64,000 bases of DNA, from positions 63,049,852 through 63,113,851 of the forward strand of contig JARDVH010000097.1 in the NCBI GenBank assembly GCA_030324005.1. The letters run 5' to 3'. Source of the stretch: Negaprion brevirostris (Eukaryota). The notes below the pieces were generated by a model. That model was not told the DNA's origin. It ran no database searches and saw nothing but the letters and a program-made list of their open reading frames with translations. A program made the position numbers and the translations under genes. This document shows, one piece after another, positions 37,837 through 40,596 of this stretch; the first letter of the stretch is position 1; every line of letters begins with the position of its first letter.

Positions 37837-37977
37837 CTGATGATGATGATGTACAGATTGTTTTTGTACTGACACCCAAACCTGAACAGGCGGCTCTTGC
37901 AAAGCAACTGCAACTTCCTCCAACATTCTTCTGCTACAAGAACAAGCCTGGCTATTTTAGTGATGACGACGAGGACG
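37837..37977 (+). CDS. RANBP2: RANBP2 exon (~exon 21), IR1 of the SUMO E3 domain, [13 protein letters not shown]...[14 protein letters not shown]
   Basis: ttgtag| phase-1 acceptor, g|gtgaga donor; SIM plus LxLPPTFFC motif. Confidence 0.93.
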
Positions 37978-38133
37978 GTGAGATGTGCTTAGTCAAAATC
38001 TCAGCCCTTGCTGGTGATCAATTTTTTATTGGTGTATCTGTAATTCAATGAGGATTAGTACCATCAGTTGTAGGCATTTGTTTCTTTTCTCAAAAACTGT
38101 CAATCTGGACACTTTAGCTAGTGTTAAACTAAC

Positions 38134-38430
38134 ACGGTAGCACAGTGGCTAGTGCTGCTGCCTCAACTCCAGAGCCCTGAGTTCAATTCCTGGCTTGGGT
38201 CACTGTCTGTGTGGATTTCCTTCAGGTGCGCCGGTTTCCTCCCACAGTCCAAAATGTTCAGAGGAAACTGGAGCTGTGCTAAATTGCCCCTAAGTGCCCT
38301 GGGATGTGTAGGTTATAGGGATTAACGGGGTAAATATGTGGGGTTTTGGGGATAAGGCCTAGGTGGGATTGTGTCGCTGCAGACTTGATGGGCTGAATGG
38401 CCTCCTTGTGCATAAAGAGTTTCTATGATA
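38134..38430 (+). mobile_element. HE1/V-SINE copy
   Basis: cacggtagcacagtgg head, ggtttcctcccacagtccaa, characteristic tail. Confidence 0.85.
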
Positions 38431-38715
38431 ACAAAATTAATCTTCTATCATGGCTTTCAGCCTGTCCTGTTTCTCACCCAGTCTGACACGTGCTCTTGCA
38501 GCCTGCCTGCTGCACTTCTTGCCCACCTTGCTCTTGCACCACATAAATTAGAAAGTTCAATTATTTGACGACTTTTGTGTACCGACTGTTGGCTGAACAA
38601 AGCATATCATTGTCATCTGATTTGTTTGGATATTTCAGAGGCAGAATCCTGTAAGCTAGATTTTACATTTAAATCCAAATTACAGATGCCGCATTAAATT
38701 ATGTTTCTGTTTTAG

Positions 38716-38799
38716 ATGAAGACTATGAAACTGCCATTAAAAAGCTCCAGGGAAAATTGTATCCAGATAAGCCAGAAAAACACAAGTCATCTAACACAG
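38716..38799 (+). CDS. RANBP2: RANBP2 exon (~exon 22), M segment, EDYETAIKKLQGKLYPDKPEKHKSSNT
   Basis: ttttag| acceptor, g|gtacag donor, 84 nt, phase 1-1. Confidence 0.92.
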
Positions 38800-38875
38800 G
38801 TACAGATTTGAAATTGAAGCAAAAACAGTGTTGTAACTGAACCACCAGAAGATTAATTTCAGAATTTTGTGCCAG

Positions 38876-38962
38876 GTGAACTCTTGGGAACTGCTAGAAA
38901 TTTGTGCCCAGGTGAACAATGGGAGCAGTTGCATCCTAATGAACCAGAAGATTTCGCTGCAG
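38876..38962 (+). CDS. Candidate extra RANBP2 exon, ELLGTARNLCPGEQWEQLHPNEPEDFAA
   Basis: gccag| acceptor, gcag|gtaaat donor, 87 nt, phase 1-1, stop-free, resembles the KLYPDKPE motif. Confidence 0.5.
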
Positions 38963-39202
38963 GTAAATTTTTAACCTAAATCTACAAGTAAAATAACTTC
39001 GTTTTAATTGTGATCTTTACACTTGAGATAAAATGCCAGAAACTGTTAAAAGACTTGATGAAAGTTTGTACCCAGATTAACAGGTGAATAGGCGTACCAG
39101 NNNNNNNNNNCATACAGCAAGCCTATGAAATGGTCACTGTTTTGTACTGAAGGTTTCCTTGTGATTGTGACAAAAATTTAAACTCTAATTTTCCAATTCA
39201 AG

Positions 39203-39274
39203 GTACATCCTTGCAAACCAGTGATACAAAGCTCTATGCAGATGAGCAAAGTGAACATCAATCCTGTGTAGCAG
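39203..39274 (+). CDS. Candidate extra RANBP2 exon, TSLQTSDTKLYADEQSEHQSCVA
   Basis: ttccaattcaag| acceptor, gcag|gtatgt donor, 72 nt, phase 1-1; aligns without gaps to the 3' half of the 38716 exon. Confidence 0.6.
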
Positions 39275-39841
39275 GTATGTGTTTTAGAAGGTCAATACTT
39301 GTGAAGTTATCTGTGGATTTGATATTAGTATTGGCACCTGCAAATGGACTTGCATGGTTTGAACAGATGGCTACAAATTTGTGGCTTNNNNNNNNNNNNN
39401 NNNNNNNNNNNNNNNNNNNNNNNNNNNNNNNNNNNNNNNNNNNNNNNNNNNNNNNNNNNNNNNNNNNNNNNNNNNNNNNNNNNNNNNNNNNNNNNNNNNN
39501 NNNNNNNNNNNNNNNNNNNNNNNNNNNNNNNNNNNNNNNNNNNNNNNNNNNNNNNNNNNNNNNNNNNNNNNNNNNNNNNNNNNNNNNNNNNNNNNNNNNN
39601 NNNNNNNNNNNNNNNNNNNNNNNNNNNNNNNNNNNNNNNNNNNNNNNNNNNNNNNNNNNNNNNNNNNNNNNNNNNNNNNNNNNNNNNNNNNNNNNNNNNN
39701 NNNNNNNNNNNNNNNNNNNNNNNNNNNNNNNNNNNNNNNNNNNNNNNNNNNNNNNNNNNNNNNNNNNNNNNNNNNNNNNNNNNNNNNNNNNNNNNNNNNN
39801 NNNNNNNNNNNNNNNNNNNNNNNNNNNNNNNNNNNNNNNNN

Positions 39842-39925
39842 AAAAGACAGTGTCTATACCCCTAACCACACTATCCCCAATTACCACTACATTCCTCTTT
39901 ACTTCTTCCTCTTTGTCCATTCTCT
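39842..39925 (-). mobile_element. CR1 ORF1 (SGNH/GDSL esterase-like) fragment beside an N-gap
   Basis: RNVVVIGDSVVRGIDTVF contains the GDS nucleophile block typical of the CR1 ORF1 esterase. Confidence 0.7.
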
Positions 39926-40396
39926 CCCCACCAGCTTTCCCACCCCTACTTAAACAATTTGTTAGGTAATACTAAACCACATGAGTCCTGCTCAGTGCTT
40001 CAATTTTGCTTAAATCTCTCCCAAATATTTCCACCTAACTCCTTGAAATTTATTTGGAGCTAGTTTTGTCCCAAATACTATGGCCCAACATCACTAGCTC
40101 ATTTGTCCCAGCATTAATGTCTTTTAAGTCTGGCTTCTAGGTAGATCATACCTGCCAGTAAAAGACTCTACGTGCCTTGAGTCTGTGTGAATTTTTTTGA
40201 GATTGCCAGCAGTCATTGTAGCAATTGTTCTCATGCTTGATGGAAATGGAGTCCTTCAGGCTAACATTGTTTTGAAGGAACGCAAAATTGAGCATTTGAT
40301 CATTACATAGCAATTGATACTGAAGTGATTTATTTCAAGTTTCAATCAGCCATTTTCTTTCCAGTATCTTTTATAGCCTTATACTTTTCATCATAG

Positions 40397-40596
40397 ACTC
40401 CGGTAGGAATAATCTTATAGAAGATGACGACAAAGACTGTATCCTTGTGTGGGAGAAGGTGCCAACCCCTCAAGAGAAGTTGAAGGCTGAGAAGTTATTG
40501 CTTCCTTCCACATTTTTTTGTGGTTTAAGCAGTGACACTGAAGGAGAGAAGGAAGATGATGACTTTGAGAGTGAGATGAGAAAAGTTGGGGCAAAG
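40397..40596 (+). CDS. RANBP2: RANBP2 exon (~exon 23), IR2, ...KDCILVWEKVPT...LLLPSTFFCG...KVGAK
   Basis: catag| acceptor (alternative in-frame acceptor gives a start at 40421), aag|gtgaga donor. Confidence 0.92.

Follow-up and report, generated by a model that had tools for sequence, protein, structure and literature searches.

The window (the whole stretch of 64,000 nucleotides of Negaprion brevirostris DNA that was analysed) holds RANBP2, the giant exon of which has the RanBP2 proteins of white shark and catshark as its top homologues (92% identity). The exons of the IR1-M-IR2 module (Table 1) lie in the order usual for vertebrate RanBP2/Nup358 (PF12185; PDB 1Z5S, 3UIN, 3UIO, 9B62), and neither the two repeats nor the conserved start of M have been disrupted, but between M and IR2 the shark gene has two extra spliced exons, here called X1 and X2, and one dead exon. 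The IR1 exon and the IR2 exon both pass the PF12185 cut-off, and the IR2 exon also matches RanBP2 chains in the PDB (9b62_E, 7r5j, 3uin, 1z5s). The Ubc9-binding IR1-M unit ends in a conserved part encoded by the first ~20 codons of the M exon, and the acidic-helix-GKLY stretch that follows IR1 is present in the M exon of the window and in 23/23 M exons. Judged from conservation alone, binding of Ubc9 and SUMO1-RanGAP1 and E3 activity would be expected of the shark IR1-M-IR2. The stretch 38660-39100 has a single match in the genome. The flanking introns carry high-copy repeats (~38130-38420 and 39817-39913 of the window), with very high contig depth, which are probably SINE-type elements. At the IR2 acceptor (40397), paired models of many relatives differ by one valine, as from a 3-nt alternative acceptor; in the window, no second AG lies three bases upstream of this acceptor.

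Table 1. Exons and exon-derived features between IR1 and IR2 of RANBP2 in the window.
Feature	Coordinates	Strand	Description
IR1 exon	37837..37977	+	141 nt, phase 1-1; SIM, motif II helix, LPxTFF core; Pfam PF12185 E 1.7e-17; GT..AG joint 37977 to 38716 in two contig sets
M exon, parent unit	38716..38799	+	84 nt, phase 1-1; PF12185 positions 43-60, E 2.6e-4 (taken alone, under the curated cut-off); joints seen
X1, M-family copy	38876..38962	+	87 nt, phase 1-1; joints 38799 to 38876 and 38962 to 39203; DNA likeness to M and X2
Second X1 acceptor copy, within X1	38899..38917	+	36 nt downstream, in frame; CCAG/GTGA at 38911/38912; direct repeat D7, 79% identity
Dead middle copy (pseudoexon)	about 39028-39132	+	TAA 39078-39080, frame lost after; 3' end approximate, 10 N at 39101-39110; skipped by joint 38962 to 39203
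X2, M-family copy without 12 nt	39203..39274	+	72 nt, phase 1-1; 27/46 nt to M; joints both sides; orthologue in 18/22 species
IR2 exon	40397..40596	+	200 nt; short acidic lead, SIM, motif II, LPxTFF core; PF12185 E 1.5e-22; joint 39274 to 40397

Between the IR1 exon and the IR2 exon, four units stand in tandem at a spacing of ~150-175 bp: M, X1, the dead middle copy and X2. A preliminary description of this DNA had recognised X2 as a duplicate of the M exon and had proposed the layout IR1-M-M'-IR2. The duplication is borne out by the similarity among the units and by splicing in two relatives, but the layout has to be corrected to a four-unit array, because X1 also belongs to the M family and a decayed copy lies between it and X2. 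X2 itself had been described accurately as a stop-free segment of phase 1-1 with an acceptor (...ttccaattcaag/G) and a donor (GCAG/gtatgt), and the counts of its likeness to the end of the M exon, 27 of the last 46 nucleotides and six of the last 15 residues, are exact. Shuffled sequences gave a mean of 12.8 +/- 2.9 nucleotide matches, and none of 100,000 reached 27. The 46-mer of M was slid over the plus strand, and X2 was the best of 63,954 window positions after M itself. From end to end, X2 aligns as M minus a single 12-nt gap, with acceptor and donor in register (P 0.0075). X2 is nearer to X1 (DNA score 47) than to M (38), and 0/2000 shuffles scored as high as X1 against M or X1 against X2. 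At the DNA level, five of the six unit pairs had P <0.01 against shuffles; the pair of the dead copy and X2 did not rise above shuffles at that threshold. Family profiles gave E values of 2e-6 for X1-X2, 1.7e-5 for M-middle, 6e-5 for M-X2 and 4e-4 for X1-middle, and weak values (E ~0.02) for M-X1 and middle-X2. The units are adjoining homologous exons, all of phase 1-1 and with aligned splice sites, which is the pattern of tandem exon duplication. The contrary reading, that the X2 segment is intronic and resembles M by chance, could be argued from the shortness of the segment, from its going unrecognised by Pfam and from a runner-up match in the window just one base lower (26/46), but the likeness persists without the three splice-consensus bases (24/43, P 8e-5), the segment is annotated in 18/22 species, and both of its predicted splice sites are used; this hardly credible reading is refuted by the observed junctions.

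The junctions come from a comparison of four sequencing runs, two of which, from related organisms and different studies and presumed to be of RNA, contain exon joints. Contigs of these two related species carry all four GT..AG joints of Table 1 (IR1 to M, M to X1, X1 to X2 and X2 to IR2), and joints of this kind, free of introns and placed at canonical sites, are a sign of spliced transcripts. Among runs on record as RNA, none was listed as containing the stretch, and a run (X16) that shares its organism code with the best-matching DNA run had no cover over these exons, which tells neither for nor against their splicing. One contig of 4797 nt reaches from IR1 to IR2, and the 243 nt that separate the two are the sum of M, X1 and X2 (84+87+72), so that the dead unit is skipped; the joined reading from IR1 to IR2 is open for 194 codons, and X1 and X2 together add 53 amino acids between the two repeats. 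The last three of these joints are among the junctions that the preliminary description had proposed to look for, and the exclusive M-to-IR2 joining that would have spoken against it did not occur. No exon-skipping joint is among the joints listed in the two spliced contig sets, a listing that stops short of 76 weaker joints, and rare forms are dropped by contig building. Mutually exclusive use of the exons was ruled out by the presence of M, X1 and X2 together in one contig and in most gene models.

Annotated isoforms were tallied in 78 RefSeq-type models from 22 cartilaginous species, 76 of which cover both M and IR2. The full set of copies of the species is present in 70/76 models, and isoforms that skip a copy are annotated in 5/76: X1 is skipped in four models from three species of two orders (S. 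canicula, C. plagiosum and, twice, C. punctatum) and X2 in one model of Amblyraja, a skate. A direct join of M to IR2 was found in 0/76 of these models; the tally excludes six further UniRef models of Callorhinchus, probably homology-based, in which little or nothing separates M from IR2. Among galeomorphs, X2 is included in 38/38 isoform models, always at a length of 24 codons. In whale shark and zebra shark, X1 begins at the internal acceptor copy (the 38911/38912 site), and one sawshark model ends X1 at the same place; the CCAG/GTGA sequence thus appears to serve as an acceptor in the former and as a donor in the latter, like a dual-specificity splice site, and a genomic deletion is a possible alternative for the start of X1 in whale shark and zebra shark. 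The introns within the array (38800-39202 of the window) are very short, with 76 nt from M to X1, and the dead copy, if it were spliced, would be flanked by introns of 65 and 70 nt; one may speculate that tight intron spacing favoured loss of the middle copy.

The preliminary description had looked to a possible effect in this lineage; the array itself is shared more widely, as 22/22 cartilaginous fishes examined carry one to three copies, with two in the chimaera Callorhinchus. An X2 orthologue is present and in frame in 18/22 species, so the stops or frameshifts in relatives that had been named as a sign against X2 were not encountered there; no model of Heptranchias, Rhinoraja (a single truncated one), Hypanus or Hemitrygon contains X2. 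Nine species (sevengill shark, sawshark and batoids) and 0/10 galeomorphs have an intact middle exon, and stingrays retain only X1. The dead copy in the window is the orthologue of this intact exon, as it shares 12/19 residues before and across the stop with the exon of Heptranchias (score 56, versus at most 36 in shuffles). A DNA contig that is possibly the assembly's own data is identical to the window over 38940-39100. Taken together, exons derived from M form a tandem array that is spliced and is shared across the chondrichthyans, and in this shark one of its members is dead.

The spacer between IR1 and IR2, measured from core to core, is 137 residues in the window and 78 in orangutan, in agreement with the earlier claim that it had been lengthened. 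It is 89 residues in lamprey, 72-91 in lobe-finned vertebrates (69 proteins) and 62-86 in 109 of the 118 ray-finned proteins with two cores. Because all cartilaginous fishes examined carry copies and the spacers of outgroups are short, the array is most simply read as a gain on the chondrichthyan stem, on an outgroup sample without bichir, gar, lungfish and hagfish. Expansions at the same site, with a similar or far larger gain in length, occur in elopomorphs (97-388 residues in seven proteins, from eels, conger, bonefish, tarpon, moray and halosaur) and in acipenseriforms (114-120 residues in paddlefish and one sturgeon protein), but those of elopomorphs are simple T/E/P/Q-rich repeats, and neither the elopomorph nor the sturgeon inserts could be matched to the shark exons (lowest P 0.02 and 0.04 among 36 tests). 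Similar exon starts had hinted that the sturgeon/paddlefish insert is homologous with the shark exons; the idea was rejected because a test did not support it, and these inserts are treated as independent. A spacer value of 248 for Acipenser ruthenus was discarded as an artefact, having been measured from IR1 to a second IR1 copy. In some sturgeon models, IR1-M or IR2 blocks are duplicated internally; one of these models is flagged as unverified, so assembly error is possible.

The copies have kept little of what makes M recognisable. Both core motifs of M (the helix and G-K/R-L-Y) are present in 23/23 chondrichthyan M exons and in 0/51 copies (0/19 X2, 0/23 X1, 0/9 middle). Pfam has no match for X1 or X2, a SUMO consensus site was found in 0/51 copies, and a SIM-like match in 1/51. 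Among 3093 windows of 24 residues compared across five galeomorph lineages, X1 is at the 2nd and X2 at the 7th percentile of identity, with IR1 and IR2 at the 52nd; across 11 chondrichthyans, X1 is at the 4th and X2 at the 2nd percentile, with IR1 and IR2 near the median. Few stretches of the protein thus evolve faster than the copies. In an AlphaFold model of the basking shark protein made with a 30-sequence alignment, helices are predicted in IR1, M and IR2, and X1-X2 has no secondary structure at a pLDDT of 26-29, in a model of generally low confidence (pLDDT 46 on average and <50 even in the cyclophilin domain). Low pLDDT in the IR region is soft evidence, since this region is expected to need its partners in order to fold. 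The copies are predicted to be disordered, but by charge and hydropathy X2 is near the order-disorder boundary (0.41 versus 0.42).

The loss of the core motifs bears on the suggestion that X2 is an M-like element of its own for IR2, or a second Ubc9-wrapping site, by which Ubc9 would be bound twice or more strongly. X2 does stand directly before IR2, and KLY-x-D is kept by the X2 of the window and of four other species (5/19), but most X2 orthologues have another residue in place of the tyrosine and the helix and G-K/R-L-Y are missing from every copy, which makes the suggestion very unlikely. A new short motif unrelated to Ubc9 binding, for phosphorylation or for binding a partner, is improbable, if less so: the fixed length of X2, the pattern KL-x-x-D-E-Q-R-E-H-K-S in most galeomorphs and a mean identity of 0.69 would fit such a motif, but this identity is low for the protein, as given above, and equal to that of the linker after IR2 (0.68), even the dead copy retains 12/19 residues in its best stretch, and X2 is absent from all models in 4/22 species.

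The place of the insert can be set against the human complex. The crystallised human constructs are residues 2631-2695 for IR1 and 2709-2771 for IR2 (PMC3281653, as excerpted); from residue numbering and the orangutan spacer, crystallised IR1 extends over the ~20 conserved residues with which the M exon begins, and by residue numbering the shark insert maps to the short stretch between the two constructs. The region after IR1 is not inert, since IR1-M-IR2 protects RanGAP1-SUMO1 16-fold better than IR1 alone according to excerpts of the same source. In cryo-EM of the human complex, as described in excerpts of PMC12246119, disordered segments flank IR1, and IR2 is mobile and without density; the same excerpts state that SUMO2 modification of Borealin does not need IR2, summarise another published model in which IR2 is catalytic once IR1 is occupied, and treat as unsettled whether IR2 must cooperate with IR1-bound RanGAP1-SUMO1/Ubc9.

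The preliminary description had also supposed that the added spacer might be tunable by splicing and might change the geometry of the E3. Stated fully, in-frame cassettes derived from M would set the reach of IR2 from IR1-bound RanGAP1-SUMO1/Ubc9 and so tune E3 output. Every unit is indeed an in-frame cassette, the skipping of X1 in two orders, the skipping of X2 in a skate and the shortened X1 of one sawshark model lend slight support to tuning, and the model of a catalytic IR2 summarised in PMC12246119 would give it a target. Against it stand the full set of copies in nearly all models, the inclusion of X2 in every galeomorph model, full inclusion among the joints listed in both spliced contig sets (contigs that drop rare forms), an IR2 that has no cryo-EM density and is dispensable for Borealin in the excerpted account, fish spacers that vary from 62 to 388 residues, and neognath birds without an IR2 core. 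We consider a splice-tuned reach of IR2 unlikely. Changed or splice-tuned E3 geometry is the less likely outcome: changed geometry is not supported so far, because the copies are without the M core, lie outside crystallised IR1, and precede an IR2 that is already mobile in the human complex.

The reading that we prefer, at a probability of about three in four, is that X1 and X2 are tandem copies of the M exon that are spliced in close relatives and act as a tolerated, flexible acidic linker, with both repeats working as in other vertebrates. An exon-plus-intron unit of ~160 bp would have undergone duplication in the stem lineage of chondrichthyans, two or more times before chimaeras diverged; the copies, inserted past the Ubc9-wrapping part of M, would then have lost its contact motifs. 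Each unit is a multiple of three and of phase 1-1, so the reading frame survives whether a copy is retained, skipped or lost. Copies would later have been dropped piecemeal and differently by lineage, and the dead copy of the window would be one such loss. Some selection on the length or the inclusion of the copies is possible, since every one of the 22 species has held on to one copy or more from a time before chimaeras branched off, and X2 is constant in length and inclusion among galeomorph models.

With PMC8373072 and PMC2394523 as the frame, in the parts excerpted, the array would be an ordinary case of co-included tandem exon duplication. Most tandem duplicated exons join the constitutive isoform, as stated in excerpts of PMC8373072; the mutually exclusive ones of that source are alike in being adjacent homologous internal exons, but the shark copies are included together and not swapped. 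The H2d-H2a duplication of vertebrate COE/EBF, in the excerpted description of PMC2394523, is likewise an old, lineage-wide copy of a small exon that is spliced together with its parent, but the COE copy repeats a recognisable helix, whereas the shark copies have lost the core of the parent, number up to three and were lost independently by lineages. The exons are already within public gene models of sharks, rays and chimaera. No published account of their origin from the M exon was found in a search that lay outside most subscription journals and supplements, where species alignments may stand.

Pieces of the module have also changed in other lineages. Among 101 lobe-finned proteins, the LPxTFF core of IR2 is lost in 32/32 neognath bird entries and kept in 3/3 palaeognath entries; most neognath IR2 also have an altered SIM, and ostrich, kiwi and tinamou keep both SIM and core. 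PF12185 still finds two stretches in falcon, at 124 bits versus 167.5 in ostrich. From these sequences, neognath birds may represent a natural loss of IR2, of which no published description was found in literature searches, and which may surpass the shark array in interest. The IR2 of lamprey is more like IR1 than is the IR2 of jawed vertebrates, and a F-K-N-L-P-G-Y stretch is kept after its core, which fits an origin of IR2 from IR1 by an older duplication. Some batoid proteins (Pristis, Leucoraja) end in a RanBP1 domain followed by IR1-M, with an IR1-M core that looks intact; the Pristis protein starts with a RING and a B-box, which marks a TRIM-like gene with a copy of part of RanBP2.

As a tolerated linker, the array presents the birth, divergence and death of exons within one kilobase and is of modest interest. 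If IR2 reach were tuned by splicing after all, the array, the eel expansions and the neognath loss would form a natural series of long-linker, short-linker and IR2-less proteins that tests IR2 as the catalytic repeat. The wide range of fish spacers and the degenerate IR2 core of neognath birds speak against the need for IR1 and IR2 to keep a fixed geometry, and they are natural variants with which it may be tested.
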